Positions 7,737 through 42,214 of a stretch of DNA of 64,000 bases are shown here, piece after piece (position 1 is the first letter of the stretch; each line of letters opens with the position of its first letter). Both the position numbers and the translations under genes were made by a program. The DNA comes from Candidatus Methanoperedens sp. (lineage in GTDB: Bacteria; Patescibacteriota; Microgenomatia; UBA12405): positions 44,232-108,231 of the forward strand of contig DATMWB010000003.1 of NCBI GenBank assembly GCA_035562735.1, written 5' to 3'. The notes under the pieces are model-generated. The model saw nothing but the letters and a program-made list of their open reading frames with translations. It had not been told where the DNA came from and ran no database searches.

Positions 7737-7745
7737 TGGTAAAAT
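7737..7745 (+). promoter_or_regulatory. Extended -10 (TGgTAAAAT) 5 nt upstream of ATG 7751, with no SD
   Basis: TG at 7737-38 and TAAAAT at 7740-45. The ATG at 7751 has no purine-rich SD between them. Confidence 0.35.
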
Positions 7746-7750
7746 ATCTC

Positions 7751-8320
7751 ATGAAAATACTTTCAATTTGCGGTTCCCCCCGAAAAGGCAATTCTGAAAC
7801 CATTCTTTTAGAACTCCAAAAACTTTTTAAAGAAAAAGGCGTTGAAAATGAAATAATTTTACTTCGTCAAAAAAATATCAACCGCTGTCATGGTTGTGTT
7901 GAATTTTGCAACCCTGCTGGGCTTTGTTGTCAAAAAGATGATGTAAGTTCTATTATCGATAAAATGGTGGAATCAGACGCCCTAATTATCATCTCCCCAA
8001 ACTATTTTCAAATGCCACCCGGATTGTTAAAAGACTTAATGGACAGGACCTGCGTAATTTTTGCCAGTGCCAAGGACGAGTTATTAAAAAATAAAAAAAT
8101 CGCTGTTATTGCTCTTGGTGCTGAGGAGGCAAAAGAAAGTCAAGTCTGCGCTGAAAATATTGCCAAGTTATATTGTCGCTATATTGGAAAAGTGGTTATA
8201 ACCAAAAGCTTTCAATCCAACAGTGAGCTAAAAGGAAATTTTAACGATATTCTAGAAAATTCTTATAATCCCGACATTAAAGCATCTCTCAATTCCATTG
8301 TAAAAGCTCTGTTAAAATAA
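7751..8320 (+). CDS. Flavodoxin-like NADPH-dependent FMN reductase / iron-sulfur flavoprotein
   Basis: It has the MKILSICGSPRKGNSE flavodoxin-like N-terminus typical of NADPH-dependent FMN reductases and a Cys cluster (CHGCVEFCNPAGLCCQ). The track start at 7736 is a TTG, and 7751 is the first ATG. Confidence 0.6.
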   Translation: MKILSICGSPRKGNSETILLELQKLFKEKGVENEIILLRQKNINRCHGCVEFCNPAGLCCQKDDVSSIIDKMVESDALIIISPNYFQMPPGLLKDLMDRTCVIFASAKDELLKNKKIAVIALGAEEAKESQVCAENIAKLYCRYIGKVVITKSFQSNSELKGNFNDILENSYNPDIKASLNSIVKALLK

Positions 8321-8323
8321 GCC

Positions 8324-10030
8324 ATGAAGTACTCACAACTTTTTGGTAAAACAAGCAAGACAGTTTCCAAGGATGCTACCGTCGCCAGTCATCGTCTTCT
8401 TCTTCAGGCTGGTTTCATTCGCCAACTTGCCGCAGGACGATACACCCTCCTTCCTCTCGGTCTAAAAGTATGTAAAAAAATTGAAAATATTATTAGAGAA
8501 GAGGTGGAAAAAACTGGAGCCCAAGAGTTAATTGTCCCTACTCTCCATCCAATTGAATTATGGCAACAAGCTAATCGAGATAAAAAATTTGGTGCTGCCA
8601 TGATGATGGTTAATGACCGTAATCAAGCCCAATTTACTTTAGGTGCTACTGCAGAAGTAATAATGTTGGACTTAGTCAAACAATTTGCCCCAAGCTACAA
8701 GGATTTACCTATAAATATCTACCAATTTTCCCAGAAATTTCGCGACGAAGCTCGTCCTTCTGGAGGTCTTTTACGAACCCGTGAATTTGTCATGAAAGAT
8801 GGTTATTCTTTTCATACAAACGAAGCCGACTTAAAAGAAACTTATCAAAAATATTGGGACGCTTATTTGAATATTGCCCAAAAATTAGATTTAAAAATTA
8901 TTGTTGTTGAATCAGACAATGGTGCTATTGGTGGGGCTGTTTCCCATGAATTTATGGTTGAATCTGAGGTGGGGGAGGACACTATTGCTACTTGTACCTG
9001 TGGATATGCTGCTAATTTGGAAAAAGCCTCCTTTGTCAAAAATTCTATTAATCTTGATGAAGCTGAAAAAGAACTAAGTGAAGTTGAAGCAGTCAGAGGT
9101 ACGACCATGGAAGATGGAGTCAAGTTACACAATTTACCTCTTAACTTACAAATCAAAGATGTGGTCTACGTTGACGAAAAAGGTCGCTTTATTTTGGCCA
9201 TTATCCGAGGTGATTTTATGGTTAATGAAACTAAATTAAAAAATTTAGTTCTTTCAAATGAATTACGCCATGCCACCGAAGAGGAAATCATCAACATTCT
9301 TCATTCTGTCCCTGGCTTTATTTCTCCGGTTGGAATAAGACAAAATATTGACCCCAAATCTGAGTTTATAATTGTTGCCGACGACTCTTTGCGCACTGTA
9401 AAAAACTGTTATGGTGGTTCCAACAAGAAAAATATTGACCTTCTCAATGTAAATATTGACCGTGACTATAAGGCCGATCTAGAAGGTGACATCGCCGCTG
9501 CCTGTGAGGGAGATATCTGTCCCCAGTGTAAATCTCAAAAACTACATTTAATAAAAGCCGTAGAGTTTGGCAATATTTTTAATATCGGCTATGCCTATTC
9601 TGATCCCATGAATGGAAACTACACTGACAAAGATGGTTCCCTAAAAAAGCTTTACATGGGTTCTTACGGAATTGGTATAGGAAGAGCAATGGCAATTGAT
9701 GTGGAAGTGCATCATGATGACACTGGGATAGTATGGCCAAAAAGTTTAGCCCCATATCAAGTTCACTTAATTGGTCTTGATGGTATGGGTGAAGATTTTT
9801 ATCAAGAATTACTTTTAAAGAATATTGATGTCCTTTTTGACGATCGCGATAGTGTTTCCGCTGGCGCAAAATTTGCTGACGCTGATTTAATAGGAATTCC
9901 TATTAGATTGGTTATCAGCAAGAGAAGTCAGGAAAAAGGTGGAATCGAATATAAATTAAGATCCCAAAAAGAGTCAGAAATTATAGACAAAAAAAATCTT
10001 ATCTCAAAAATTACTAATTACTTTAACTAA
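8324..10030 (+). CDS. proS: Prolyl-tRNA synthetase
   Basis: 568 aa with a class II aaRS core and ProRS-specific motifs (…HRLLLQAGFIRQ…, anticodon-binding C-terminus). Confidence 0.9.
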   Translation: MKYSQLFGKTSKTVSKDATVASHRLLLQAGFIRQLAAGRYTLLPLGLKVCKKIENIIREEVEKTGAQELIVPTLHPIELWQQANRDKKFGAAMMMVNDRNQAQFTLGATAEVIMLDLVKQFAPSYKDLPINIYQFSQKFRDEARPSGGLLRTREFVMKDGYSFHTNEADLKETYQKYWDAYLNIAQKLDLKIIVVESDNGAIGGAVSHEFMVESEVGEDTIATCTCGYAANLEKASFVKNSINLDEAEKELSEVEAVRGTTMEDGVKLHNLPLNLQIKDVVYVDEKGRFILAIIRGDFMVNETKLKNLVLSNELRHATEEEIINILHSVPGFISPVGIRQNIDPKSEFIIVADDSLRTVKNCYGGSNKKNIDLLNVNIDRDYKADLEGDIAAACEGDICPQCKSQKLHLIKAVEFGNIFNIGYAYSDPMNGNYTDKDGSLKKLYMGSYGIGIGRAMAIDVEVHHDDTGIVWPKSLAPYQVHLIGLDGMGEDFYQELLLKNIDVLFDDRDSVSAGAKFADADLIGIPIRLVISKRSQEKGGIEYKLRSQKESEIIDKKNLISKITNYFN

Positions 10031-10094
10031 TTTTCTAGAATCTAGTTTTTGTATCTAGTTTCTAATTTTTTAATTTTTACTCTATACTCTTCTT

Positions 10095-12230
10095 ATGCCT
10101 CGAGGACGCAAGAAAAATCGAATTTTACCAACACTTAAATTAAAGCCAGATACTGTCAAGTCAATTTTCTTTATCTTTTTTCTAATATTAGCCATACTTT
10201 CCGTATTTTCGTTTCTTCAACAGGGGACCGTTGCTACAGATGTAAACCTTGCTTTAACTAAATTTTTTGGTTGGGGGGCGGTTATGGTTCCTTTTTTACT
10301 GCTTCTAATTTCATTTCTCTTTACCAAAGTAAAATCACCGTTACGTGAGGCAAATGTATTTTTTGGTTTCTCCATAATGTTTTTTGCTCTATTGGGCCTT
10401 TTCAAGCAAGGTTTCGTCGGTTTGTTTTTTTGGGAACAGTTTCTTGCCCTTTTTTCTGAAGCACCGACATTCATAATTTTCTTTTTCGCTCTCATAGTCG
10501 GTTTTGTTGTTCTATTTGATACTAATATTGCCCAAGTTATCAAATTTATTGCTAATGTCTTCAATACAATACGCAAGTATTCTGTTGGCCAAGCAGTCAA
10601 ATTAAAAGAGAAAAAAATTGCCAAAGAATCAGCCAAGAATCCTCTTTATCAATCAGAAATGAATTCAGAAAATTCTGACCCCTTTGCCACAAAGGAAAAG
10701 GATTATGCCAAATCGAGTTCAAAAACAGACTTGGCAGTAGTCGATATTGCCCCAGTTTTTAAAACCACTTCACCCCTTACCTCAACTGGTAATCAGACCT
10801 GGGTTTACCCTTCAATGTCTCTTTTTGATGATACCCCCGGTGCCAAAGCAGATAGAGGTGATGTCCGAAAGAATGCTCAAATTATTGAGCAAACACTTGA
10901 TTCTTTTGGAATAACTGCCCGTGTAGCCGAAGTCAACAATAGTCCTTCTGTTACCCAATACGCCCTTGAAGTCGCTCTCGGTACCAAGCTTGCAAAAATT
11001 TTATCCCTCAGTAACGATTTAGCCATGGCGCTAGCAGCACCAGGTGGACAAATTAGAGTTGAGGCCCCAATTCCAGGACGTTCTTTGGTTGGTATTGAAA
11101 TGCCAAATCGTTCTTTGGAAGTGGTTCCAATTCGAACAATTCTAGAATCTGAAGCCATGAAAAATGCCAAGAGTAAAATATCTGTTCCCTTGGGTCTTGA
11201 TGTTGCCGGCCAACCAAAAGTTGCCGATATTTCCAAGATGCCTCATGTCTTGATTGCTGGTCAAACTGGTTCCGGTAAATCTATTTGTATCAATTCTTGG
11301 ATTTCAACAGTTTTATTCCGTGCTTCCCCCGACGAAGTTAGACTAATTATGGTCGATCCTAAGCGTGTCGAATTATCGGGCTATAATGGCATTCCCCATC
11401 TTCTAACTCCGGTTATTGTCGAACCAGAAAAAGTAGTCTCTGCCTTAAAATGGGCTGTCAATGAAATGGAACGTCGTTATAAAATGTTTACCGAAGTTGG
11501 TGCCAAAAACATTGAGGGTTACAACAATTTATCCGGCTTTCAGTCCATTCCTTACATTCTTATTGTCATTGATGAGTTAGCCGAAATTATGCTTTTCTCG
11601 CCTGCCGAAGTAGAAGACAATATTTGTCGTATTGCTCAAATGGCTCGTGCCACCGGTATTCACTTAGTACTAGCTACGCAGCGACCTTCAGTCAACATTA
11701 TTACTGGTTTAATCAAAGCCAACATTCCAACAAGAATAGCCTTTGCTGTTGCCTCTATGACTGATTCACGGGTTGTTCTTGATACCCCAGGGGCTGAAAA
11801 ATTATTAGGTCGGGGTGACATGCTTTACATCCCACCTGATTTAGCCAAGCCTGTTCGTGTCCAAGGTTGTTTTATTTCAGACAAGGAAGTAAATCGTTTA
11901 ATAGACTTTCTAAAGACTCAACGTACCGGTGAGTACAATGACGAAATTACTCGACAACCAGTAAATAGTCCCACTTCAATGAGCAAAAATGTAATGGTTT
12001 CCGATGGAGAAGAACGTGATTCCATGTTTGAGGACGCCATAAAACTTATCCAAGAAACCGGAAAAGCGTCAGCTTCACTATTACAACGCCGTCTTAAACT
12101 AGGTTATGCCCGCGCCGCCAGAGTCCTTGATGAATTGGAAAAAGCCGGAATAGTCGGCCCAGTCAATGGCGCCAAACCAAGAGAAATATTAATCGATCAC
12201 AGATCACCTTCTGATAATAATCTAGAATAA
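10095..12230 (+). CDS. ftsK: DNA translocase FtsK/SpoIIIE
   Basis: It has N-terminal TM helices, a Walker A motif (GQTGSGKS), a RecA-like motor domain and a C-terminal gamma winged-helix (LLQRRLKLGYARAARVLDELEKAGIVG). Confidence 0.85.
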   Translation: MPRGRKKNRILPTLKLKPDTVKSIFFIFFLILAILSVFSFLQQGTVATDVNLALTKFFGWGAVMVPFLLLLISFLFTKVKSPLREANVFFGFSIMFFALLGLFKQGFVGLFFWEQFLALFSEAPTFIIFFFALIVGFVVLFDTNIAQVIKFIANVFNTIRKYSVGQAVKLKEKKIAKESAKNPLYQSEMNSENSDPFATKEKDYAKSSSKTDLAVVDIAPVFKTTSPLTSTGNQTWVYPSMSLFDDTPGAKADRGDVRKNAQIIEQTLDSFGITARVAEVNNSPSVTQYALEVALGTKLAKILSLSNDLAMALAAPGGQIRVEAPIPGRSLVGIEMPNRSLEVVPIRTILESEAMKNAKSKISVPLGLDVAGQPKVADISKMPHVLIAGQTGSGKSICINSWISTVLFRASPDEVRLIMVDPKRVELSGYNGIPHLLTPVIVEPEKVVSALKWAVNEMERRYKMFTEVGAKNIEGYNNLSGFQSIPYILIVIDELAEIMLFSPAEVEDNICRIAQMARATGIHLVLATQRPSVNIITGLIKANIPTRIAFAVASMTDSRVVLDTPGAEKLLGRGDMLYIPPDLAKPVRVQGCFISDKEVNRLIDFLKTQRTGEYNDEITRQPVNSPTSMSKNVMVSDGEERDSMFEDAIKLIQETGKASASLLQRRLKLGYARAARVLDELEKAGIVGPVNGAKPREILIDHRSPSDNNLE

Positions 12231-12238
12231 AAATTCCT

Positions 12239-12836: not shown

Positions 12837-12851
12837 TTATACTGAAGCTAT
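12837..12851 (+). promoter_or_regulatory. Leaderless promoter/start module TTATACTGAAGCTAT(g) (identical 15-mer at 37046-37060)
   Basis: A -10-like TATACT at 12838-43 is followed 6 nt later by ATG 12850. The 15-mer is identical to the one upstream of rfbC. Confidence 0.35.
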
Positions 12852-13092
12852 GGATATCACTCAAATTGTTGTCATTATCAGTCTTTTATCAATTTCAGTC
12901 GTCATTGTTGCCGTTGGAATTTACCTAATAAAACTTATCAAAGATCTTCGCATTACTGTAGGTCAAACCAATCAGATGATCAGTTCTGTTTCTGGACCAG
13001 TGTCTTCCATTTCTGAATTTTTAATGGGTTTTAAAAACGGCATTTCACTTTTTAATTCTTTTTTTAGTAAAGACAAAAAAGAAGAAAAATAA
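12850..13092 (+). CDS. Small membrane protein (80 aa)
   Basis: It has a single long hydrophobic helix (VVIISLLSISVVIVAVGIYLI). No homology is recognised. Confidence 0.4.
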   Translation: MDITQIVVIISLLSISVVIVAVGIYLIKLIKDLRITVGQTNQMISSVSGPVSSISEFLMGFKNGISLFNSFFSKDKKEEK

Positions 13093-13529: not shown

Positions 13530-13557
13530 CCTATAACTTGACTTAAATATCGTCGAT

Positions 13558-13566
13558 TGTTATAAT
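13558..13566 (+). promoter_or_regulatory. Extended -10 TGtTATAAT heading a long structured leader
   Basis: TGTTATAAT at 13558-66 lies 30 nt after the upstream stop and about 270 nt upstream of the lipoprotein ATG. Confidence 0.3.
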
Positions 13567-13582
13567 CACCTAATGCAATTTT

Positions 13583-13623
13583 AAGCGAACCTAAGGCAAC
13601 ACGTCTTTCCGTTCGCTTTTTTT
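13583..13623 (+). terminator. Hairpin (AAGCGAAC…GTTCGCTT) plus T7 run, either a terminator for ORF 13098-13529 or an attenuator in the leader
   Basis: An 8-bp stem with a 20-nt loop is followed by TTTTTTT. Confidence 0.45.
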
Positions 13624-13633
13624 GTATCGATAT

Positions 13634-14749: not shown

Positions 14750-15367
14750 TTATTCCTCAACTTTTCCAAACACTTCTCTTAGTGATTCATTTACTGTCTT
14801 ATTTTGAACTTGTTCAATTAGTTGTTGTTGATAAGCTACAATTTCCCCATCGGTAATTCCACCCTTTTCCATTATTGTTTTTGCGTGTACTTCGTCTAAA
14901 ATTGATTCTCCGACCTCATCACCAATTCTACCAAGCAAGTTAATCACTATTGGTTTGATTAAAGCTTTTTGTTCCACTGTCAATTCCTCACTTGTCAATC
15001 CCTCAACAATCCACTCCGTAGTTTTATTTTGTAACTCAGCTGGAGGTTCAAAACATTTTCCCTGAGTACTCCAAACCAAAAAGGCGTCGCTAAAAGATTC
15101 TGCCAACACCATTCCCATTCCACTTCTCAATGCGACCCCGTATAAGTCTGTTTGTTCTGAAACATAATTCTCAACCGAAGCTATAACATCTAAATTATTA
15201 TCAATTCTAGCCACGCCATAGACAAATGCTAGTGATTCTACCCCCAATTTATCAATATTTCCCTTATTCATTTCCGTCACCGCTCTCACATCTTCAATTG
15301 AAGACCTTGCTCCGAGTGGTGTCACTTGCATTCCATCAAATATTGAGCGTGATTGTTCTGCAGCCAT
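14750..15367 (-). CDS. Hypothetical acidic protein (205 aa)
   Basis: A clean ORF divergent from alaS. No recognisable domain. Confidence 0.45.
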   Translation of the reverse strand: MAAEQSRSIFDGMQVTPLGARSSIEDVRAVTEMNKGNIDKLGVESLAFVYGVARIDNNLDVIASVENYVSEQTDLYGVALRSGMGMVLAESFSDAFLVWSTQGKCFEPPAELQNKTTEWIVEGLTSEELTVEQKALIKPIVINLLGRIGDEVGESILDEVHAKTIMEKGGITDGEIVAYQQQLIEQVQNKTVNESLREVFGKVEE

Positions 15368-15388
15368 AGCTTATTGTACCGCATTTCT

Positions 15389-15397
15389 TGCTATAAT
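15389..15397 (+). promoter_or_regulatory. Extended -10 TGcTATAAT 6 nt upstream of the alaS ATG (leaderless geometry)
   Basis: TGCTATAAT at 15389-97 with the ATG at 15404 and no SD. Confidence 0.4.
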
Positions 15398-15403
15398 CTC
15401 CCT

Positions 15404-17278
15404 ATGAACGCACGGGATTTGAAAAACAAATTTGTTGATTTTTTCAAAAACTATCAACATGCCGAAATTCCCAGTGCTTCAATTGTTCCCGAAAACGATC
15501 CCACCACTCTTTTCATTTCTGCTGGCATGCACCCCCTCGTTCCTTATCTCTTAGGTCAACCCCATCCTCTAGGCAAAAGGTTAGTTGATGTTCAAAAATG
15601 TATTCGTACTGGCGATATCGATGAAGTCGGTGATACCTATCATCACACTTTTTTTGAAATGCTTGGCAACTGGTCTCTTGGTGACTATTTCAAAAAAGAG
15701 ATGATTGCTTTTTCCTATGAGTTTTTAACCAACAAAAAATATCTAGGTCTTGATGTATCAAAATTAGCTTTCAGCTGTTTTGCTGGTGATCAAGACGCTC
15801 CTCGTGACGAAGAAAGTTTCAATTTTTGGCGTGAACAGGGAGTTAGTCCCAGCAGAATTGCCTATTTACCTAAAAAAAATAATTGGTGGGGTCCCGCTGG
15901 AGCTACTGGCCCCTGTGGTCCAGATACCGAAATGTTTTATTGGACAGGGGAGAGTGAAGCACCCGAAAAATTTGATGCCAATGATAGTCGTTGGTTGGAA
16001 ATTTGGAATGACGTTTTTATGCAGTACAACAAAAAAGCCAATGGTACCTTTGAAGCACTAAAAGCTCCAAACGTTGATACAGGTATGGGGGTTGAGCGAA
16101 CTACTGCAGTTTTATCGGGCTTATCGGATAATTATCAAACCTACATTTGGCAACCAATAATTCAAAAAATAGAGGAAATCTCTGGGAAAAAATATGTCGC
16201 TGCAATGAATAATCCCGTCATTGCGAGTAGCACATCCGTCATTGCGAGCGAAGCGAAGCAATCTTCTAAAAAAATCGCCACCTTATCTTCTACTTCTAAC
16301 GATGACGCCCGAAGTTTTCGCATTATCGCTGACCATATAAAGGCTGCAGTTTTTATGATTGCCGACAGTGTTGAACCCTCAAACAAAGAGCGTGGTTATG
16401 TTCTCCGTCGTCTTATTAGACGTAGTATCCGTCAAGGTAAAATTTTGGGAATAGAGCAAAATTTTTGCTCTATTATTGCCACTACTGTTTTAGACAATCA
16501 AAACAATTATGCTGGTACCTATTCCGAACTAGATTCAAACAAAAATAAAATTTTAGAGACTTTAGAGGCTGAAGAAACCAAATTTCGTCGCACTCTCAAC
16601 AAGGGTCTTAGTGAAATTACAAAATTAATTATCCGTCAAAAAAGTGTCTCCGGAAAAGAAGCTTTTGACTTATACCAATCCTTTGGTTTCCCCGTCGAAA
16701 TGATAGAGGAAGAATTAAGAAGAAACAATTTATCTTTAGATATTGCCGAGTTTAACCGTCTAAAAGAGGAACATCAAAAACTATCTCAAACTCTTTCTGC
16801 CGGAAAATTCAAGTCAGGTTTAGCTGATAATTCCGAAATTATCACCAAATATCACACTACTACCCATCTAATGCACGCCGCTCTTAGAAAAGTTTTGGGT
16901 GAGCATGTTGAACAAAGTGGTTCCAATATTACCTCAGAAAGACTTCGTTTTGATTTTTCCCATCCGCAAAAAGTTGCCGAAGATCAGCTAAAAGAAGTCG
17001 AAAAAATAGTCAATGAACAAATTAATGCCTCACTTTCCGTCACTGTGGAATCTATGAAATTTACTGATGCCCAAAAATCTGGTGCCTTAGCCTTTTTTGG
17101 CGCTAAATACCCAGAAATTGTTACTGTCTATACAGTCGGTGACCCAAAAAGTTTTTTTTCAAAGGAAGTCTGTACCGGCCCCCATGTCGATAATGTTGGG
17201 AAATTAGGTCATTTTGAAATTCAAAAAGAAGAATCCGCAGGCAGTGGCAAGCGTCGGATTTATGCTATTCTTAAGTAA
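15404..17278 (+). CDS. alaS: Alanyl-tRNA synthetase, short form lacking the C-Ala domain
   Basis: Met at 15404 aligns to the AlaRS N-terminus (…FVDFFKNYQHAEIPSASIVPENDPTTLF…). The catalytic and editing domains are present (HxxxH …CTGPHV). The ORF ends right after the editing domain. Confidence 0.88.
   Translation: MNARDLKNKFVDFFKNYQHAEIPSASIVPENDPTTLFISAGMHPLVPYLLGQPHPLGKRLVDVQKCIRTGDIDEVGDTYHHTFFEMLGNWSLGDYFKKEMIAFSYEFLTNKKYLGLDVSKLAFSCFAGDQDAPRDEESFNFWREQGVSPSRIAYLPKKNNWWGPAGATGPCGPDTEMFYWTGESEAPEKFDANDSRWLEIWNDVFMQYNKKANGTFEALKAPNVDTGMGVERTTAVLSGLSDNYQTYIWQPIIQKIEEISGKKYVAAMNNPVIASSTSVIASEAKQSSKKIATLSSTSNDDARSFRIIADHIKAAVFMIADSVEPSNKERGYVLRRLIRRSIRQGKILGIEQNFCSIIATTVLDNQNNYAGTYSELDSNKNKILETLEAEETKFRRTLNKGLSEITKLIIRQKSVSGKEAFDLYQSFGFPVEMIEEELRRNNLSLDIAEFNRLKEEHQKLSQTLSAGKFKSGLADNSEIITKYHTTTHLMHAALRKVLGEHVEQSGSNITSERLRFDFSHPQKVAEDQLKEVEKIVNEQINASLSVTVESMKFTDAQKSGALAFFGAKYPEIVTVYTVGDPKSFFSKEVCTGPHVDNVGKLGHFEIQKEESAGSGKRRIYAILK
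16216..16264 (+). repeat. Interspersed repeat copy A (partial unit plus full unit) inside the alaS coding sequence, in frame
   Basis: CGTCATTGCGAGtagcacatc + CGTCATTGCGAGCGAAGCGAAGCAATCT. It translates as VIASSTSVIASEAKQS within a loop insertion relative to canonical AlaRS. Confidence 0.7.
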
Positions 17279-19467
17279 TGGAGCTGTCCTATTATTGGCT
17301 TATTTCAATCACTACCGAAGTTGTTTCAGTGGGTCTGATAAAACGAGGTAATCCAAATACTTTGGCTGCGCTTGGTCCAGAAACCGAATGGCTTCCCGAC
17401 AATCCTGATTCATTTTTACACTCTGTTGATATTTCTTTATCAGAGGCGGCGCAAAAAGCTTCACTTGAGCCCGAACAAGAACCAGAAACAAGTGCTTTTA
17501 TCCTTCCACCAAAGTGGATCGGCAATGACGGTAAAATTTTTCCAGAATATTTAAAATTACTCGAAAACCTTTGTCGTTCTCTAAAATTAAAACCCCTTGG
17601 TTTTATCAGTAACGATGAAGCCTTCATCGAATCTCTTGGAAAAGAGGATTCATTCCCCCCAAGTTTTATTTTGGTATACCTTGGTATAAAAGAATTCTCC
17701 TTGTCCTTGGTATATCTTGGAGAAGTAAAAAAACGTTTTCATCAAGCCTTAAGTAATGATTTTACCCCTCAAGATTTAGAAAATGCTCTAGTTACTGTTC
17801 GTTTGGATTCAGCCTTACCCCCGAGAATTTTAGTCTTTGGTCATTTGGGATTAAGCATTATTGATGATTTAAAAAATTATTCTTGGATAGGTAAAAAAAA
17901 TGTTGAAACCTTTTTACATTTACCTGATGTTGAAGCCTATCAACCAGAGGAACTTTTTTCTTTGTATTGTAAAACCGTCTCCTCTCAAATTGAAAATAAA
18001 GCTCAAAATGCGTCACCCCCCCCAGTAGAAAAAGTTGATATCTCCGATAATAATCTCGAAGAGATAGCCGAGGAACCCATAGAAGAAATTGAAGAAACAG
18101 AAGAAGCTCCTAAAGACGAAAAAATATTTATCGAGGAAGATATAGAAAATTCCATAGATGAAGTTCCTGCGATGGATTTGGGTTTTTCCCAAATTACTGA
18201 CTCTGACTCTATTGTTTTGACTCCACCAACTTCTATTGATACAGACTCTTTTGCCAAGGAAAATATCGAGACTCAGTTACCCCCCTCAAAGTCCAACATA
18301 AATCTCCCTAAATTTTCCTTTCCCAAGATTTCTTTGCCAAGTTTAAAATTCAATCCTTGGTTCCTCTTTCCCTTGGCTCTTTCACCCCTACTTCTGCTCA
18401 TTCCCTACTATCTAATGAAAGCGGAAATTACGATAAATTTTACTCCAGTTGAGATAAACAAAGACTTCAATGTCACTCTTGATTCAACGGCTACTGATGT
18501 TACGACAAGTACCATTCCTGTTCTTAAAAAAACTCTTGATTTAAAGTTTTCAGAGTCTATTGCTACGACTGGTCAAAAAGAGACTGGTGACAAATCAAAA
18601 GGGGAAATTACCCTTTTTAACAAGGCTGACAAAATTCAAAATGCTCCCAAAGGCACAATACTATCTGACAACTCTGGTAAAAAATACGAACTACTCACTT
18701 CCATTCAAGTGCCCGCAAGTACCTTTGACCTCGCTGTTGGTAGTATTGCCATGGGAAAAATCAATGCCACCATAATTGCTAGTGATATTGGACCTGAGTT
18801 TGATTTAAATAAAGACACTCTTTTGTCCTTCAAAGATAACGCCAACTTACTGGCTAAAGTCAATGAAACAATTACCGGTGGAAGTCGACGTCAAATTAGA
18901 GTCGTCTCTTCCGAAGATAAAAGCAAATTAAATAAGGTCGTTACCGATTCTTTACCTACCCGCATTTCAGAAAAGGTTGACGCAGAATCTTCACTTGCTG
19001 GTCTTATGACTGGCACTCTCTTTGTCGACAAAAAACAACTCGATTTTAATCGTGAGATAGGTGAAGAGGCAGATACTCTTCAAGTAAATGCCAACTTGGT
19101 TCTTTCTTTGCTTCAAGTTGACCCCCAACAAAAAGAAAATATCCTAAAAACATTACTAGTAAATAATCAAGATGTTTTAAAATCTATTTCCTCACCCGCT
19201 GATTTTTCTTTTACTTTTAACGCCACCCAAAACACCTCATTAAAATCAACCGGAAAGTTGACCATAACAGGTAAGACACTTCCCAAAATTGATACTGAAA
19301 GCCTCCGTTCACGCTTAGTTGGGAAAAGTATCACTGACGCCTTGAGCATTGTAGATTCACAGTCCCGAGTTTATGATAGGGACATAAAGATAATTCCTTC
19401 CCCTTTCAAATTTCTCAAGCGTTTACCCCCATCTCGAGATAAAATTACCATTATCCAAAAATTTTAA
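17278..19467 (+). CDS. Membrane protein with a PilM/FtsA-like (actin-fold) cytoplasmic N-domain, an acidic linker, one TM helix and a beta-rich extracytoplasmic domain
   Basis: The N-terminal ~160 aa resemble the PilM/FtsA SHS2 region. An E/D-rich linker, a TM helix (WFLFPLALSPLLLLIPYYLM) and a ~350-aa C-terminal domain follow. The fold assignment is by eye only. Confidence 0.5.
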   Translation: MELSYYWLISITTEVVSVGLIKRGNPNTLAALGPETEWLPDNPDSFLHSVDISLSEAAQKASLEPEQEPETSAFILPPKWIGNDGKIFPEYLKLLENLCRSLKLKPLGFISNDEAFIESLGKEDSFPPSFILVYLGIKEFSLSLVYLGEVKKRFHQALSNDFTPQDLENALVTVRLDSALPPRILVFGHLGLSIIDDLKNYSWIGKKNVETFLHLPDVEAYQPEELFSLYCKTVSSQIENKAQNASPPPVEKVDISDNNLEEIAEEPIEEIEETEEAPKDEKIFIEEDIENSIDEVPAMDLGFSQITDSDSIVLTPPTSIDTDSFAKENIETQLPPSKSNINLPKFSFPKISLPSLKFNPWFLFPLALSPLLLLIPYYLMKAEITINFTPVEINKDFNVTLDSTATDVTTSTIPVLKKTLDLKFSESIATTGQKETGDKSKGEITLFNKADKIQNAPKGTILSDNSGKKYELLTSIQVPASTFDLAVGSIAMGKINATIIASDIGPEFDLNKDTLLSFKDNANLLAKVNETITGGSRRQIRVVSSEDKSKLNKVVTDSLPTRISEKVDAESSLAGLMTGTLFVDKKQLDFNREIGEEADTLQVNANLVLSLLQVDPQQKENILKTLLVNNQDVLKSISSPADFSFTFNATQNTSLKSTGKLTITGKTLPKIDTESLRSRLVGKSITDALSIVDSQSRVYDRDIKIIPSPFKFLKRLPPSRDKITIIQKF

Positions 19468-34074: not shown

Positions 34075-34102
34075 AAAAAAGTCCCCTGTATAGGGGACTT
34101 TT
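34075..34102. terminator. Rho-independent terminator after rpsG (bidirectional-type hairpin)
   Basis: AAAAAGTCCCCT-gtat-AGGGGACTTTTT, a 12-bp stem with flanking A and T runs. Confidence 0.75.
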
Positions 34103-34136
34103 TAGTTATTTGTTCTATCATGTATCTGATATATAT

Positions 34137-34145
34137 TGATATAAT
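34137..34145 (+). promoter_or_regulatory. Extended -10 TGaTATAAT 5 nt upstream of ATG 34151 (leaderless geometry)
   Basis: Its spacing to the ATG is identical to that of the 7737 element, with no SD. Confidence 0.4.
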
Positions 34146-34150
34146 AAGTA

Positions 34151-34570
34151 ATGTCGAGGTATGAATTGTTTCAACACTTAGTTGGAGAAGAAATAAGAAA
34201 AAGTAATCCCCATGGCAAATTACAGGTTGTTGGCGATACCTCTACTTTAGAAGACGACGAAAGACTTTTCCATATCGCTGGGGAACTCATTTCAAATTGT
34301 GCCGAAAAGGGAGCTGAAGAGATAACTTTAACTCTAACACCACGGCTAATAGTCGTAGAAGACAATTTAGTTCACACCCCAGAAGAAGTGGAAAAAATTC
34401 TTGAAAATATTCAGCAACCACTACCAGTAACCAATAAAGCTATCGTTGAAAACGGTCAATCAATTCGTGGTTTTGGTATTTTTAGTGTTCGAAACACTCT
34501 CCTTGAAATTGGTGCTTCCTTGTTTTATGAACATCGTGATGGTCGAATAATCGCTAGAGTTGAATTATAA
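34151..34570 (+). CDS. Small GHKL (histidine-kinase-like) ATPase domain protein, anti-sigma-factor/SpoIIAB-like size
   Basis: 139 aa with an N-box-like ELISNCAEKG and a G-box-like GFGIFSVRNTLLEIGASL. There is no sensor or DHp domain. Confidence 0.5.
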   Translation: MSRYELFQHLVGEEIRKSNPHGKLQVVGDTSTLEDDERLFHIAGELISNCAEKGAEEITLTLTPRLIVVEDNLVHTPEEVEKILENIQQPLPVTNKAIVENGQSIRGFGIFSVRNTLLEIGASLFYEHRDGRIIARVEL

Positions 34571-34615
34571 GAAAGAAATCTGGTTAGACTATTTTGTTTT
34601 GTGTTAACATAATTT

Positions 34616-36004
34616 ATGTCATTATTTTCAAAATCAAAAGTTGTTCTCTGGCCAAAAGATGAAAGCCTAGAAATATATTTAGACCGAAGTGACAACAACA
34701 CCTTTTCTTTTGAAACAAATCTTTGGAGTGAACAAGGTGATGATAGTTTAAATAGTTTAGCCAGCTTTTTTAAACAAAATAAAATATCCGAGGCATATGT
34801 TCTCCTAAATGACACTTATGTTATTACCAAGACTTTTATTTACGATTCTGTTGTCACTAAGCTCGATCCAAATGAAGTCATAACCTTGGCCAAAGATTCA
34901 ATAGATTTCAAAATATCACCCGAGTCTGTTACCTTTGATCTTGAGTCTGAAGGAAATCGGACTTTAGTTCGAACAAGAATTTTCAATCAGGATAAATTTC
35001 AAATACTTACTGCCAATCTCCAAAAAATTGGTCTAAAAGTACTTGATTTTGAAACCGTATCTTCATCTGTGGCCAAGCTTTACACCAATTTTGATAACGG
35101 TCAGTATTTTTTCTTTTACCCCATAAATACCCACGATTACGTTGCTATCCTAAGCAACAAAGGAAATGTTTACTTAACCTCAATTATCAAAAAATCTCTT
35201 CCGGAACTTAAGAAGTTATTAAATTACGCTCAAGCCTATTTTAGCAACAAGGAGCCAACCCAATATTTGCCAGATACCAATTACAACGAATCCGAAATTT
35301 GTCAACGTTTTCAAAAAGCGTCAAATCTACCTCTACCAGTTCTATCTTTCTTTATTGGCCAATCGAAGCCTGTTGCTGATATAATAAAGACAGAAACAAC
35401 CCAGACGCTTCCCCCAACGCCTACTTCTAATATTATCGATTCAACAAATAATCCCTTACCAACTATGGAAAACAACAAAAAAAGTCTTTTACCAATAATT
35501 GCTGTTTTTATCATCACCGCAATTGTTGCCTCAATTATTGTTTGGTTTATATTAAACCAAAACAAAGATACTGATTTAAATCCAGGTGGTGAAAACCCGG
35601 CAGAAGAAATAAGTAGTACCCCAATGGCAACCGAAGAACCAACTCCTACTATTGCTGAGCTTAGTAAAACCCTAAAAATACAGGTGCTAAATGCCACCGA
35701 CATAAATGGTCAAGCAGCCACTATCAAAACTGAATTGACCAACCTCGGTTTCACTAGTATCAATACAGGTAACAGCAAAGAAGCAGCAACCAGCAACCAA
35801 ATTCAAATAAAAAAGACCATTGTTCCGGACTATTTTCTTAAAAACGTGGCTCAATTTTCGACAGCAACAGTCAGTGAGTTATCTGAAACTTCAACCTATG
35901 ATGTTGTCTTTATTATTGGGGTAGATCTCAAAACTGGAAGTGCCGCTCCTACAGCGACAACTCCCACTACAACTAGTACCCCATCAGCTACTCCCACTAA
36001 TTAG
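34616..36004 (+). CDS. Membrane protein with a PilM-like cytoplasmic N-domain, one TM helix and a C-terminal LytR_C domain
   Basis: The N-terminal ~290 aa resemble PilM (…FQILTANLQKIGLKVLDFETVSSSVAKLY). A TM helix (LLPIIAVFIITAIVASIIVWFIL) and a LytR_C-like C-terminus (LKIQVLNATDINGQAATIKTELTNLGF…VVFIIGVDL) follow. Confidence 0.5.
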   Translation: MSLFSKSKVVLWPKDESLEIYLDRSDNNTFSFETNLWSEQGDDSLNSLASFFKQNKISEAYVLLNDTYVITKTFIYDSVVTKLDPNEVITLAKDSIDFKISPESVTFDLESEGNRTLVRTRIFNQDKFQILTANLQKIGLKVLDFETVSSSVAKLYTNFDNGQYFFFYPINTHDYVAILSNKGNVYLTSIIKKSLPELKKLLNYAQAYFSNKEPTQYLPDTNYNESEICQRFQKASNLPLPVLSFFIGQSKPVADIIKTETTQTLPPTPTSNIIDSTNNPLPTMENNKKSLLPIIAVFIITAIVASIIVWFILNQNKDTDLNPGGENPAEEISSTPMATEEPTPTIAELSKTLKIQVLNATDINGQAATIKTELTNLGFTSINTGNSKEAATSNQIQIKKTIVPDYFLKNVAQFSTATVSELSETSTYDVVFIIGVDLKTGSAAPTATTPTTTSTPSATPTN

Positions 36005-37041: not shown

Positions 37042-37045
37042 TTTG

Positions 37046-37060
37046 TTATACTGAAGCTAT
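37046..37060 (+). promoter_or_regulatory. Leaderless promoter/start module TTATACTGAAGCTAT (second identical copy)
   Basis: TGtTATACT at 37044-52 is followed 8 nt later by the rfbC ATG at 37061. The 15-mer is identical to 12837-12851. Confidence 0.35.
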
Positions 37061-37621
37061 ATGATGAAATTTACCCCACTCTCCATTCCTGGACTAGTTC
37101 TTGTTGAACCTCAAGTATTTGGTGATGAAAGAGGTTTTTTTATGGAAACTTACAGTAAAAAAGAGTTTGCTGAAGCTGGTATAAATGTTGATTTTGTTCA
37201 AGACAACCACTCCCGATCTACCCAAGGGGTGCTCCGCGGACTTCATTTTCAAAAACCACCTTTTGCCCAAGCAAAACTTGTTAGAGTTACTCAAGGTGAA
37301 GTTTTGGATGTGGCTGTTGATATTCGACCCGATTCTCCGACCTTTGGTAAATGGGATTCAGCGCATCTTACCGCTGAAAACAAAAAAATGTTTTATCTTC
37401 CCGAAGGTTTTGCACATGGATTTTATGTCTTAACCGAAACAGCCGATTTCCAATACAAGTGTACCAACTTCTACAATAAGGAATCTGAAGGCGGTCTACT
37501 TTGGAATGACCCTGATATCAATATTGCTTGGATGGCTCCAAGTCCCACTCTTTCCGACAAAGATAAAAACTGGCCAAATCTAAAAGATATTGAAGCCGAG
37601 CTTAAAACCCTCAAGTGGTAA
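37061..37621 (+). CDS. rfbC: dTDP-4-dehydrorhamnose 3,5-epimerase
   Basis: Cupin RmlC motifs (…RGFFMETY…, …RGLHFQ…). Confidence 0.88.
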   Translation: MMKFTPLSIPGLVLVEPQVFGDERGFFMETYSKKEFAEAGINVDFVQDNHSRSTQGVLRGLHFQKPPFAQAKLVRVTQGEVLDVAVDIRPDSPTFGKWDSAHLTAENKKMFYLPEGFAHGFYVLTETADFQYKCTNFYNKESEGGLLWNDPDINIAWMAPSPTLSDKDKNWPNLKDIEAELKTLKW

Positions 37622-38624: not shown

Positions 38625-38647
38625 TGGTTTAGTTGTTACAATTAGAT

Positions 38648-39742
38648 ATGGATAGAGAACCTCCAGCTTCTGTATTTTCTAATGCAAACAAACTGTCTGC
38701 ATTTCCAAAACAAGTCGAATCAGTTTTAAGAGGTGAAACTATTGCTCCAATCACCCTTGAAATTCAACCTAGCTCCGGTTGTAATCACGCCTGTCCCAAA
38801 TGTTCCGGAAAATTAAATAAAGATTCTCCTTATTATGCCGAAATAAGAAAACAATTTACATTTATAAACCCCGATGTGGTTAAGGGAATTGTCGATTCTC
38901 CAAGAGCTCCATTAGGTGTAGTTTTTGCTGGTGATACAGGTGACCCTCTTCTTCATCCCCAGATTGAGTCACTTATAGACATTGTCAGCGATAAAAACAT
39001 TTCTATCTCAGTGATTACTAATGGCCAGGCATTAAATCAGAGTATTTCCCAAAAAATTGTGCAAAGATGTCAGGGTGTAAGGGTCTCATTAGATGCTTTC
39101 GACGCAAAGTCACACCAATTGACACATGGTAGCAATGGTGAACAATGGGAAAGTTTATTAGAAAACATTAGAGAGCTTGTCAGTCTACGGGATAATTCTC
39201 CGAAAAAAAAAGAATGTTTAATTGGTATTGGTTATTTGACCGCAAAACACACACTCGGTGGAATCATTGAGGCTACAAAACTTGCAAAAGATCTTGGAGT
39301 AGATTATATCCATTTTCGCCCATTTTTTTATTCTAATGATGAAATTAGTCAGGAAATTATCGAAAGTTGTAAAGCTTTAGAAGATGAAAATTTCTCTGTA
39401 ATATTTCCCGGCGCCAAATATCAAAATTCAAAAGATAGAAACTATCCAACGTGTAAGGCTGCAAATTTTGTAACAGTTATAAATCCTAAAGGAGAAGCAT
39501 ATATTTGTTGTCATCACATAGGACAAGAAAATGCCAAAATTGATACCATTGGAACAAATCCAGAAGATTGGGATAAATTTGTTATAAGTGATAAAAGACG
39601 CGATCTAATCCAAAAATTTAATTTAACCGAATGTCCGCCATTTTGTCGTCTTCATAGTCATAATCAAACTTTATCCAAAGGAGTTTCCGTAGATTTATTA
39701 AACCAGCCTGTATCCGCCAGTCACCACGCCAAGTTTTTATAA
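38648..39742 (+). CDS. Radical SAM domain protein (possible sugar-modifying enzyme)
   Basis: It has a CxxxCxxC (SSGCNHACPKCSG) and additional C-terminal cysteines (CCHH…CPPFC). The first ATG is at 38648, while the track ORF begins at TTG 38633. Confidence 0.65.
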   Translation: MDREPPASVFSNANKLSAFPKQVESVLRGETIAPITLEIQPSSGCNHACPKCSGKLNKDSPYYAEIRKQFTFINPDVVKGIVDSPRAPLGVVFAGDTGDPLLHPQIESLIDIVSDKNISISVITNGQALNQSISQKIVQRCQGVRVSLDAFDAKSHQLTHGSNGEQWESLLENIRELVSLRDNSPKKKECLIGIGYLTAKHTLGGIIEATKLAKDLGVDYIHFRPFFYSNDEISQEIIESCKALEDENFSVIFPGAKYQNSKDRNYPTCKAANFVTVINPKGEAYICCHHIGQENAKIDTIGTNPEDWDKFVISDKRRDLIQKFNLTECPPFCRLHSHNQTLSKGVSVDLLNQPVSASHHAKFL

Positions 39743-39857: not shown

Positions 39858-40535
39858 ATGAGCGACAATCGTTCTTTGACAATCGAAGGTGGGTCGACCG
39901 TGACCATCAGTTTCAAGACTGATCCCGCCAATGATTGGCAGCTAACGCTGCAAAACGTTCGGGAAGAGGAAGGCGGAATTTTCGCCGACAATTTTCTTCT
40001 TGCCCGGAAAAACGGTCAACATTTCTTTGCCAAACTCGTAAAAGTTTTGGGGATCAAAGCCGACGGATCAGAATTTCCGTACTGGCTTCCCAGGATTTTT
40101 GACATCGGGAATGGCTACAAATGTGGAGATGTCGTAATTCAGTTTCGCAAACACCCCCAGTCGAAACGCTGGATGGTTGATGTGGAATCAGAATACGGCA
40201 GCAAGTCTCCCGATCTCCTAGAAAAGGTTATCCGAATCAGTCGTTCTTCGCTTGACAATATCAAGCAGGCTGTTAAGAAAACCGTCAAGGAAACCGGACA
40301 AGACTGGCTCAACTCTCAGCGTATTGGTGGAGACAAAGTTTCCATGCATTGCGTTGACGCAGGTTGGTCACCACAGCTTTTTGCTCAGGGCAAGGTAATG
40401 GATGTTTTCGACTTCGTTGCAAATTCCCATGATGGTCCCGGGAAAATCGCACTAGTTGAAGCACTTCAACACCTTCCCACCCCCATCGCCAAGCAAGTCG
40501 CGATGTGTATCATTGTTCCTCCAACCGAGGAATAA
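39858..40535 (+). CDS. Hypothetical protein, G+C-rich orphan gene
   Basis: A 226-aa ORF with a strong SD and markedly higher G+C than its neighbours. No recognisable domain. Confidence 0.5.
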   Translation: MSDNRSLTIEGGSTVTISFKTDPANDWQLTLQNVREEEGGIFADNFLLARKNGQHFFAKLVKVLGIKADGSEFPYWLPRIFDIGNGYKCGDVVIQFRKHPQSKRWMVDVESEYGSKSPDLLEKVIRISRSSLDNIKQAVKKTVKETGQDWLNSQRIGGDKVSMHCVDAGWSPQLFAQGKVMDVFDFVANSHDGPGKIALVEALQHLPTPIAKQVAMCIIVPPTEE

Positions 40536-40631
40536 AAAACTAGCCAGATGCTAGAACAAGCATGCCGACACCCCATGTGTTGACGTTTTAAGCTGACGTC
40601 TCCTACGTTCGGTCGAAGCACAATTTTTTAT

Positions 40632-40689
40632 GTGTCCTCTTCTCTGATTTCAGACTTCGGTCTGTTTAAAAAATCAGGGAAGGGGACAC
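40632..40689. promoter_or_regulatory. Nested hairpin with a 19-bp outer stem (2 G·U if RNA) enclosing a 5-bp stem with a UUCG tetraloop
   Basis: GTGTCCTCTTCTCTGATTT-[CAGAC-TTCG-GTCTG]-tttaaaa-AAATCAGGGAAGGGGACAC. No U-run follows in either orientation, so it is not a canonical terminator. Confidence 0.5.
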
Positions 40690-40698
40690 AGTTATATT

Positions 40699-41934
40699 TC
40701 AAATTCTCTTCCCCACTCTCTCTCCCTCTCTCACAGCATAATTAATACCCCTGTCTTCCGGATATATTTGTGCAAAGTTAACATGAATAACTTTATTTTC
40801 TACATTAGTTTTTCTCTCCGTCTTGTCATTATAATTTTTGGTAACTATATGTTGTGCATATTTAAATCTAAAAACATGTTTTTCAATAAGTCCTTTTTCA
40901 CTAAATTCAGGAAAAATTTTCTTTAAATAGTCAAAAAAATCTTTTTCAATTAAAGAGTCTTTGCATGTAAAATATTTGTGATTTTGGGGCAAATAAGTCC
41001 CCATATAATAAATATTTTTTCCGCCATAATTCTCTGTCCCCATTAGGTTTGTATGTTGAATAAAGGCCAAAAAAGGGGAGTTGATATCATTGATATTATG
41101 CCAATAATAAGGACTTAAACTCTGTTTTGAAGAAAAAACCATCGTCACCGCTCCCAAATAATCAATACCATCTAATGGCGCCGAGCTAATAATTCTATCG
41201 AATCCGTCATCGCGAGTGTAATCACGAAGCAATCTTTCTGGATTGGTCTCAATATTCGTCTTTATCTCTCCTCCCAACTCTTTTATTCTTTTTTCCAATT
41301 CATCAATAATTATTTGAAATCCTCCTTCCATATAACCTAGATACTCTTTCCCCCTTTCACTCGAATTACCTCTTGTATGAATTCTTGCCCACATCCATGC
41401 CATTGAAATATCTTGATATCTATCGTTAAATTTACCTTTTAATAGTGGCTCCCAGACTACTTTATAAGCATTTTCCCCACACCATTTTCTCATCCACTCA
41501 TAAGCCAAAACATCTTCAAATTTCTTCCAATTCTTTTCTCTTTCTAGATAGATTTTAACTAGTCCCAATCTCAACTTATCAAATAAATTTAGAGGTTTAA
41601 ATTTTAATAAATCTATTACCCCTGCAAACGGATATATAGTTCCACTGTAATATAGAGCAGTTTTACTCTCAAACCATTTTAACTTATTTTCCAAACCCAA
41701 CTCCTTGATCAAAGCAATTATTTCTTTGTCAGTTTTAAAAATGTGATGATAAGCTTTCTCTAAATTCGTCCCTTCAATTTTAAATCCCCCCAACAATCCA
41801 CCCAAACTATCACTTCTCTCAAAAATTATTACCTTATGACCCTTTTGAAGCATTCTGTATCCCACCACCAAACCTGTTATTCCTCCGCCGATTATTGCAA
41901 TTTTTTGTTTTTTCACTTCCAAATTATATCTCAA
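40699..41934 (-). CDS. FAD-dependent oxidoreductase (amine-oxidase / UDP-galactopyranose-mutase-like Rossmann family)
   Basis: It has the dinucleotide-binding motif IAIIGGGITGLVVG…E…GGL at the N-terminus and is about 410 aa. It sits in a sugar-nucleotide context. Confidence 0.6.
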   Translation of the reverse strand: MRYNLEVKKQKIAIIGGGITGLVVGYRMLQKGHKVIIFERSDSLGGLLGGFKIEGTNLEKAYHHIFKTDKEIIALIKELGLENKLKWFESKTALYYSGTIYPFAGVIDLLKFKPLNLFDKLRLGLVKIYLEREKNWKKFEDVLAYEWMRKWCGENAYKVVWEPLLKGKFNDRYQDISMAWMWARIHTRGNSSERGKEYLGYMEGGFQIIIDELEKRIKELGGEIKTNIETNPERLLRDYTRDDGFDRIISSAPLDGIDYLGAVTMVFSSKQSLSPYYWHNINDINSPFLAFIQHTNLMGTENYGGKNIYYMGTYLPQNHKYFTCKDSLIEKDFFDYLKKIFPEFSEKGLIEKHVFRFKYAQHIVTKNYNDKTERKTNVENKVIHVNFAQIYPEDRGINYAVREGERVGKRI

Positions 41935-41949
41935 TCAGCTTATAACGGG

Positions 41950-41958
41950 TGTTAGAAT
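41950..41958 (+). promoter_or_regulatory. Extended -10 TGtTAGAAT 7 nt upstream of ATG 41966 (leaderless geometry)
   Basis: TG-n-TAGAAT with the ATG at 41966 and no SD. Confidence 0.35.
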
Positions 41959-41965
41959 TAAAAAT

Positions 41966-42214
41966 ATGGAAAATAAACAAAATAAAAAGAATTTTTTAGC
42001 CTTGGGTCGAACTCATATGGCTAATGAAAGAACTATGTTATCTTATTGGCGCACCGCTCTAACATTTTTAGTTCTTGGCGCCTATCTAATCAGACAAACT
42101 CCCGCCGAAGAATTTATATTACCCGCCACAATTGCTATTTTATTTGGTGTTGTACTCTTTATTTTTGGAACAGTTAAGTTCTATCAATTTAAAAAAATTA
42201 TCAACAACAGTTAG
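41966..42214 (+). CDS. DUF202/YidH-family small membrane protein
   Basis: It has the ANERTMLSYWRTALTFLVLG signature and two TM helices. Confidence 0.55.
   Translation: MENKQNKKNFLALGRTHMANERTMLSYWRTALTFLVLGAYLIRQTPAEEFILPATIAILFGVVLFIFGTVKFYQFKKIINNS

Follow-up and report, generated by a model that had tools for sequence, protein, structure and literature searches.

A 64-kb stretch of DNA (64,000 nucleotides; the window, by which we mean this whole stretch), which comes from Candidatus Shapirobacteria (Microgenomates, within the Candidate Phyla Radiation, or CPR), carries short modules in which a -10 promoter hexamer stands a few nucleotides ahead of the start codons of genes such as alaS, proS and ftsK. 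We think it likely that these modules are extended -10 promoters without a -35 element and that they start transcription at, or next to, the start codon, giving leaderless mRNAs. On this proposal about one-third of the transcription units would be driven by a sigma70-type -10 hexamer (TAnnnT), often preceded by TGn and lacking a recognisable -35 element, with the end of the hexamer 5-8 nt (mode 5-6) ahead of the start codon. RNA polymerase normally starts about 7 bp past the -10 element and prefers a purine flanked by pyrimidines; the first transcribed base would accordingly be the A of the ATG (or the G of a GTG), or a base 1-2 nt ahead of it. The 5' end of the mRNA would then be the start codon itself, with no Shine-Dalgarno (SD) sequence, and such a message would be decoded by direct binding of the ribosome and initiator tRNA to the 5'-terminal AUG. 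The remaining genes, mostly internal to operons, would use SD-independent initiation or re-initiation at A-rich, G-depleted junctions. The argument proceeds from geometry, enrichment, a bias toward operon-first genes, conservation between genomes and the absence of SD sequences, and from these the transcription start and the mode of translation are predicted.

Start-proximal -10 elements in the window

An earlier note on this DNA had listed five extended -10 elements placed 5-8 nt ahead of an ATG without an SD. All five pairs are exactly where it put them, with gaps (the number of nucleotides between the end of the -10 hexamer and the start codon) of 5, 6, 5, 7 and 8 nt, and the five ATGs open real genes as judged by Pfam: those for an FMN reductase, alaS, a protein with a weak HATPase_c match, a DUF202 protein, and rfbC. 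The pattern is more widespread than that note listed, as there are five further extended -10 genes, all with gaps of 5-6 nt (proS 8324, LytR_C 34616, radical SAM 38648, gene 17278 and secY 55489), and seven plain TAnnnT genes: ftsK 10095, gene 12850, gene 15367(-), amine oxidase 41916(-), uppP 61693, Lon-like 2751 and, possibly, rpoB 26091. Two of the plain -10 genes, the amine oxidase (41916, minus strand) and the Lon-like AAA ATPase (2751), start with GTG. None of the candidate genes, the first five included, has GGAG, GAGG or AGGA within 20 nt upstream. The modules are as follows.

2736..2753, + strand: Lon-like AAA ATPase; cTGTATACT, 6 nt, GTG 2751; a candidate leaderless GTG start
7737..7753, + strand: FMN-reductase gene; TGGTAAAAT at 7737-45, 5 nt, ATG 7751
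8310..8326, + strand: proS; TGTTAAAAT, 5 nt, ATG 8324; shares bases with the stop codon of the gene before it
10083..10097, + strand: ftsK; TATACT, 6 nt, ATG 10095; in 8/8 genomes, hexamer-window identity 0.94
12838..12852, + strand: 80-aa gene; TATACT, 6 nt, ATG 12850; hexamer kept in 8/8 genomes
15365..15378, - strand: divergent 205-aa gene; TACAAT (15378-15373), 5 nt, ATG at 15367
15389..15406, + strand: alaS; TGCTATAAT at 15389-97, 6 nt (ctccct), ATG 15404
17263..17280, + strand: gene 17278, a weaker candidate; TGCTATTCT, 6 nt, ATG 17278; inside the alaS 3' end
34137..34153, + strand: 139-aa HATPase_c-like gene (weak match); TGATATAAT at 34137-45, 5 nt, ATG 34151
34602..34618, + strand: LytR_C gene; TGTTAACAT, 5 nt, ATG 34616
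37044..37063, + strand: rfbC; TGTTATACT at 37044-52, 8 nt, ATG 37061; a second ATG at 37064
38634..38650, + strand: radical-SAM gene; TGTTACAAT, 5 nt, ATG 38648; an independent gene call in L001 has the same start
41914..41928, - strand: amine-oxidase gene, divergent from the DUF202 gene; TATAAT (41928-41923), 6 nt, GTG 41916
41950..41968, + strand: DUF202 gene; TGTTAGAAT at 41950-58, 7 nt, ATG 41966; a single-genome case
55474..55491, + strand: secY, a weaker candidate; TGGTAAGAT, 6 nt, ATG 55489; a possible internal promoter in the rplO 3' end
61681..61695, + strand: uppP (BacA); TAAAAT, 6 nt, ATG 61693; 9 nt past the terminator CCCGCCTCTCCGGCGGGTTTTTT

The placement of these elements was evaluated against 74 curated gene starts across the window, which has a G+C content of 38% and uses genetic code 11. 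A strict search for TGnTA[AT]A[AC]T gave 11 matches on the plus strand, 7 of them with an ATG 5-8 nt downstream. The looser TGnTAnnnT was found at gap 5-8 in 10 of the 74 genes (five at gap 5, three at gap 6 and one each at gaps 7 and 8), compared with 5 matches over the 27 other gap positions; from this background of 0.0025 per position per gene about 0.7 genes would be expected (binomial p~6e-9). Plain TANNNT at gap 5-7 occurs at 0.090 versus 0.031 per position per gene, a three-fold excess over the local background (p~2e-5). The raw pattern TGNTANNNT-N5-8-ATG has 24 matches in the window versus 14.5 +/- 3.6 in Markov-1 simulations; 10 of these 24 ATGs open genes, which only a few percent of ATGs overall do. 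Moreover, TGn precedes 10/23 (43%) of the start-proximal hexamers but 7.7% of the 2573 hexamers on both strands (5.6-fold, p=3e-6), and the motif stands before 15/31 operon-first-like genes versus 8/43 internal genes (Fisher p=0.007).

In the GeneMarkS-2 classification, the leaderless genes of group C are defined by a Pribnow box lying 6-8 nt ahead of the start codon in operon-first genes (PMC6028130); the window has such a box, with a sharp peak at gap 5-7. The earlier note suggested that systematic leaderless initiation would be a notable property of the translation apparatus of this lineage; with its published signature it is better described as a known organisation. The leaderless interpretation itself, in which the transcription start is a prediction, agrees with every available sequence-level test.

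Conservation in related genomes

Relatives were found by exact-protein look-ups, and all are syntenic with the window: seven other Shapirobacteria genomes (L083-L093) for its 2.7-27 kb part, and three loci (L094-L096) for 24-47 kb. With the orthologs aligned on their start codons, the hexamer window has a mean pairwise identity of 0.84-1.0 versus about 0.30, the level of unrelated sequence, at -45..-21, and operon-internal control genes show no conserved motif block in the same ortholog comparison. The alaS module is present as TG[CTA]TATAAT + 6 + ATG in 8/8 Shapirobacteria (identity 0.96 in the hexamer window and 0.30 at -45..-21), and it is unchanged where the upstream neighbour varies (a divergent gene, a small gene on the same strand, or one for a radical-SAM protein). 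proS keeps TA[AC]AAT+5+ATG in 8/8 genomes, also where a different, terminator-like element replaces the upstream gene. The 14 nt of the FMN-reductase module are identical in the 3/3 genomes that have the gene, and TGTATACT+6+GTG of the Lon-like ATPase is identical in 4/4 genomes, GTG included. LytR_C has TG[TC]TAA[CG]AT+5-6+ATG in 4/4 genomes, and rfbC has TG[TC]TATACT in 4/4, with a gap of 7-8 and beginning 3 nt past the rfbB stop codon. In the orthologs of the 80-aa gene the 6-nt spacer is constant in length and variable in sequence. For the amine oxidase, TATAAT is kept in L095 and L096 while the called start differs between genomes, which leaves its start codon uncertain.

Across the 10 related loci, gaps of 5, 6 and 7 nt occur 9, 15 and 9 times, so that the mode is 6. 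Among orthologs the hexamer takes several forms (TATAAT, TAAAAT, TACAAT, TATACT, TAACAT, TAAGAT), all with T1, A2 and T6, and the changes fall at positions 3-5 and at the 'n' of TGn; TGn is kept in alaS (8/8), rfbC (4/4) and LytR_C (4/4).

The ATG or GTG adjoining the promoter appears to be the true translation start, as judged from the proteins and from gene calls made elsewhere: the alaS N-terminus MNAR[DE]LK is common to about 115/120 homologues, the database protein HWS48500.1 initiates at the same ATG (15404), Pfam alignments start at residues 1-15, and orthologous starts were chosen by independent gene calls in 10 related loci.

The surroundings of the modules bear on whether they could be real promoters that are mostly secondary, internal or silent, with longer transcripts dominating and leaderless initiation marginal. 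The 36-bp intergenic region upstream of alaS holds the back-to-back -10 boxes of alaS and of the divergent 205-aa gene (for which no Pfam family was matched). Elsewhere in the window, a terminator or hairpin stands ahead of the motif at gene 34151 (a terminator at 34076-34103, 33 nt upstream of the module), uppP and the FMN-reductase gene (the hairpin ATCCCGATG...CATCGGGAT), and in L094, L095 and L096 the LytR_C motif comes directly after an intrinsic terminator. The 36-bp divergent region and the terminators directly upstream of -10 elements thus leave no room for a leader. The presence in the window of leadered promoters (rpsO, tuf, fusA/RNase J; described below) and the operon-internal position of some candidates would suit dominance by longer transcripts, yet the divergent gene or terminator immediately upstream of alaS, LytR_C, gene 34151, uppP and the FMN-reductase gene means that no alternative promoter space is visible at these five, and the strict spacing to the ATG would be unexpected were the ATG internal to a longer transcript. 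We therefore regard a merely secondary role as unlikely.

Shine-Dalgarno use and motif-less genes

An SD core lies within 20 nt of the start in only 7/74 genes, so that about 90% have none. The earlier note held that ribosomal-protein genes here use SDs; this was wrong, since among the approximately 27 in the window only rplX does so. AAGGAGG at 29331-29337, before the rpoC ATG at 29345, is identical in 4/4 Shapirobacteria genomes and, because it is conserved inside the otherwise variable rpoB 3' end, SD-anti-SD pairing appears to be still in selective use; the 16S 3' end would accordingly be expected to have kept its CCUCC. The other genes with a strong AAGGAGG are rplX 52253, gene 13839, rpoA 59277 and gene 63311(-).

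The 51 genes without a start-proximal -10 element have 57-71% A and 0-2% G at -8..-2, with T at -1, and most of them begin 1-5 nt after, or overlap, the previous stop codon (for example, in the ribosomal-protein operon at 47-61 kb). This suggests a Bacteroidota-like or Kozak-like non-SD context, or termination-reinitiation.

Nature of the proposed promoter and placement of the predicted transcription start

At least 4/6 matches to TTGACA at a spacing of 16-18 bp were found in only 3/17 candidates, and a two-hexamer promoter scan of the window did not exceed shuffled sequence (61 vs 53 +/- 8; in a second run, 42 vs 34 +/- 6). That scan is uninformative about candidate promoters that are not of the -35/-10 type; together with the 3/17, its lack of enrichment points to promoters of the -35-less, extended -10 type. 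In their TG, in the invariance of A2 and T6, and in a -35 element that is dispensable or absent, the candidate modules have the sequence traits of extended -10 promoters of the sigma70 type. The TG of an extended -10 element has a known role in contacting the sigma factor, and no known role in translation.

In 49 species, the distribution of transcription starts has its centre 7 bp past the -10 element (PMC12641261). By this spacing a 6-nt gap would put the A of the ATG at +1, and 6 is indeed the commonest gap in the related loci. In most candidates, moreover, a pyrimidine stands at -1, giving Y-A-T at the predicted start.

Could the same hexamers act in translation instead? TAnAAT/TATACT might be a non-SD ribosome-binding or enhancer element on leadered or polycistronic mRNAs, resembling the group B motifs of Bacteroidota, and not a promoter. 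That some 90% of genes lack an SD, that upstream regions are AT-rich throughout, that proS, gene 17278, secY and rfbC lie 0-19 nt behind a same-strand gene, and that group B motifs likewise stand near starts (PMC6028130) would all accommodate such an element. It would not be expected, however, to carry a TG one base upstream that is enriched 5.6-fold, nor to have as its invariant positions exactly T1, A2 and T6 of a -10 hexamer. Group B motifs precede operon-first and internal genes alike, and so cannot be promoters; here the motif is biased toward operon-first genes, most internal genes lack it, and the motif-less genes carry a different, A-rich pattern. The survival of the proS motif where a terminator-like element has replaced the upstream gene is a further point for a promoter. 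A ribosome-binding function is in our judgement quite unlikely.

Other lineages

Two controls were applied to loci of other lineages. The first was a scan independent of gene calls, in which ATGs opening an open reading frame (ORF) of at least 80 codons after TGNTANNNT were counted at gaps of 5-8 versus gaps of 9-60. The second took genes starting at their first ATG and recorded what fraction of them had an extended -10 element at gap 5-8 and what fraction had an SD-like core before the start. The CPR, DPANN and non-CPR controls are distant alaS loci (44-54% identity) from a contig scan by alaS alignment, all from outside the Shapirobacteria.

Enrichment at gap 5-8 in the scan independent of gene calls:
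Window: 7.6x
Other Shapirobacteria loci: 7.7x
17 other CPR loci: 3.7x
DPANN archaea: 0.8x
54 non-CPR bacterial loci (907 kb): 1.1x
Non-CPR loci with <42% G+C (471 kb): 0.9x

First-ATG genes with an extended -10 element at gap 5-8, and with an SD-like core:
Window: 14%; 9%
Other Shapirobacteria: 16%; 7%
Other CPR: 6.9% (background 1.1%); 9%
DPANN archaea: 0%; 16%
Non-CPR bacteria: 2.5% (~background); 44%

The 14-16% of genes with an extended -10 element in the window and the other Shapirobacteria compare with a background of 0.2-0.7%. That the pattern is a coincidence of AT-rich composition and the choice of gene starts is highly improbable: for all the 38% G+C and the 2573 occurrences of TANNNT on both strands, the enrichment is position-specific over the local background and recurs as the same peak in the scan independent of gene calls, the motif is conserved between genomes, and the starts are backed by conserved N-termini and independent gene calls. 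AT-richness as the cause can be set aside, as the low-GC non-CPR controls have no peak (0.9x).

For alaS, a -10 box 5-8 nt before the ATG is found in Saccharibacteria, Kuenenbacteria, Microgenomates and other Patescibacteria loci; short-form alaS genes of other CPR with this arrangement are those of L031, L043, L047, L077, L017, L015 and L079. At the alaS loci of Treponema/Spirochaetia (L005, L012, L016, L064) a full TTGACA-17/18-(-10)-8-ATG promoter is present, and the alaS of Clostridia and Bacilli is preceded by an SD. A predicted leaderless alaS may extend beyond the CPR.

Points against a leaderless interpretation

Several points weigh against start-codon transcription from these modules. 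The folding energy of +1..+40 does not differ between candidates and other genes (-2.7 vs -2.2 kcal/mol, p=0.13), a result that favours neither side. The predicted transcription start is derived from promoter geometry alone; the 7-8-nt gaps of rfbC and the DUF202 gene could yield leaders of 1-2 nt, and the four genes that closely follow a same-strand gene (proS, gene 17278, secY and rfbC) may owe some or all of their translation to polycistronic read-through mRNA. The statistics are based on the 64-kb window and about 217 kb of related sequence, not on whole genomes. Conservation is partly shared ancestry, as the orthologous loci have synteny and descent in common (alaS 67-81% identical), but the flanking non-coding sequence of the orthologs is already randomised.

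Leadered promoters and other observations

A leadered promoter in the window has TGCTATAAT at 101-109, about 80 nt before rpsO. On the plus strand of the tuf region (45739-45844), a promoter TTGCGA-17-TGnTACAAT (45739-45767) has after it some 70 nt of leader with the conserved hairpin CCGCGACAAGCGG and T6 (45807-45827) and then 18 A-rich nucleotides before the ATG; the leader is conserved in 3 genomes, and its hairpin might serve attenuation or stabilise the 5' end. RNase J (5750-5798) and fusA (42294-42341), both on the plus strand, have in common an AT-rich upstream module ttttttACTATttatctatta..., which comes directly after a terminator at fusA and recurs upstream of RNase J in L089; most probably the two genes have a promoter of one kind, with an SD-less leader of 25-35 nt. 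For the start-proximal arrangement itself, relB in the relative L095 is a canonical case, with TTGACA-17-TACAAT-5-ATG.

One further site, at 13558 (TGTTATAAT+6+ATG), was rejected as a leaderless gene: its ATG opens an ORF of 3 codons only, and a terminator follows. This site belongs to a unit at 13538-13626 on the plus strand that comprises TTGACT-17-TGtTATAAT, which of all canonical promoters within the first 20 kb is the best, the ORF ATG CAA TTT TAA, and a hairpin GCGAAC...GTTCGC with a T7 run. The unit sits in the 309-nt gap before gene 13839 and has no Rfam match; its layout suggests an independent transcript some 50 nt long, which is a candidate for a small RNA or a decoy. Neither Rfam nor tRNA scans gave a match anywhere in the window, and none of the sequences analysed contains an rRNA.

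The 13-mer TTATACTGAAGCT is common to the modules of the 80-aa gene (12838-12849) and rfbC (37047-37058). It may be a coincidence or a recent copy, because the orthologs keep the hexamer but not the spacer.

Source of the window

The homologues of the window's alaS at 67-89% identity carry the name Candidatus Shapirobacteria. The NCBI protein HWS48500.1, identical to the window's alaS product, is filed as 'MAG TPA: Candidatus Methanoperedens sp.' (MAG, metagenome-assembled genome). The Methanoperedens label looks like a binning error that placed a CPR bacterial contig in an archaeal genome, because the window has bacterial rpoB/C and S10-spc-alpha operons without L30 (the rpsE-rplO interval holds no gene for it), and because the 67-89% identical contigs of Shapirobacteria are syntenic with it.

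Implications

The analysis suggests that a low-GC, code-11 lineage with reduced ribosomes expresses essential genes (alaS, proS, ftsK and possibly secY and rpoB) from leaderless mRNAs, and predicted heavy use of leaderless messages thereby extends beyond Actinobacteria, Deinococcus and Mollicutes. It also offers a sequence rule by which promoters and true starts can be located in Shapirobacteria and, probably, elsewhere in the CPR; start prediction based on SDs would fail on about 90% of the genes of these organisms, for which we know of no cultures or transcription-start maps. The compact, conserved promoter-start modules of 20-25 bp are of potential use as expression elements in those few CPR systems that can be cultivated. 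Leaderless initiation as such is textbook material, and to a specialist the result will be useful rather than startling.

More tentatively, and with somewhat more doubt than belief, we raise the possibility that SD-independent initiation is the default throughout the CPR, with operon-first genes leaderless from -35-less (extended) -10 promoters and internal genes on A-rich, SD-free junctions. Preliminary support comes from the 17 other-CPR loci, with their 3.7-fold peak, extended -10 elements in 6.9% of genes versus 1.1%, and SD-like cores in 9%. Leaderless initiation of the 70S type is often regarded as ancestral. If it held across the CPR, this ancestral-type 70S route would be the main one for a very large share of bacterial diversity, whose ribosomes are reduced.

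A literature search on leaderless genes together with CPR, Patescibacteria, Saccharibacteria, Microgenomates and Parcubacteria found no report of leaderless CPR genes in the library searched. Loss of the anti-SD in the CPR has been reported for part of the Parcubacteria only (PMC9297842).

Comparison with known systems

Group C genomes are mainly Actinobacteria and Deinococcus-Thermus (PMC6028130). Like Mycobacterium tuberculosis, M. smegmatis and Deinococcus deserti, the window has TANNNT 6-8 nt before operon-first starts, no SD at these genes, and both ATG and GTG starts; further points of likeness are the share of transcription units involved (some 25-50%), a -35 element that is weak or absent, and the contribution of a G/TG extension of the -10 element (PMC6028130; Zhu et al. 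2017 as cited in PMC12641261). Unlike them (high-GC, with SDs on their other genes), the window has 38% G+C, code 11 and no SD at about 90% of its genes, and its organisation is known from sequence alone.

Group C genomes with code 11 are almost all high-GC, and the low-GC genomes of group C are Mycoplasma, with code 4; low GC together with code 11 is a pairing nearly missing from the group (MetaGeneMark-2 preprint). Mycoplasma and other Mollicutes share with the lineage described here small, low-GC, reduced genomes, and 30-60% of Mycoplasma transcripts are predicted to be leaderless with the same spacing (MetaGeneMark-2 preprint). Phylum and genetic code differ, however, and the remaining genes are of the SD type in Mycoplasma, whereas those of the window are A-rich and non-SD.

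The Bacteroidota of group B are comparable in their very low SD use and, for the motif-less genes, in their A-rich, G-poor upstream sequence (PMC6028130). They differ in having one motif before operon-first and internal genes, whereas TAnnnT in the window is biased toward operon-first genes and has a TG extension.

In E. coli and Gram-positive bacteria, a leader of 20-40 nt, or a longer one, normally comes after an extended -10 promoter. The window's hexamer is by contrast placed so that the predicted transcription start falls on the start codon; the likeness lies in the TG one base before a TATAAT-like hexamer and in a dispensable -35 element (Mitchell et al. 2003, as cited in PMC12641261). 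The Shapirobacteria are thus a new lineage for a known organisation, unusual in combining low GC, -35-less extended -10 elements, and almost no SD elsewhere.

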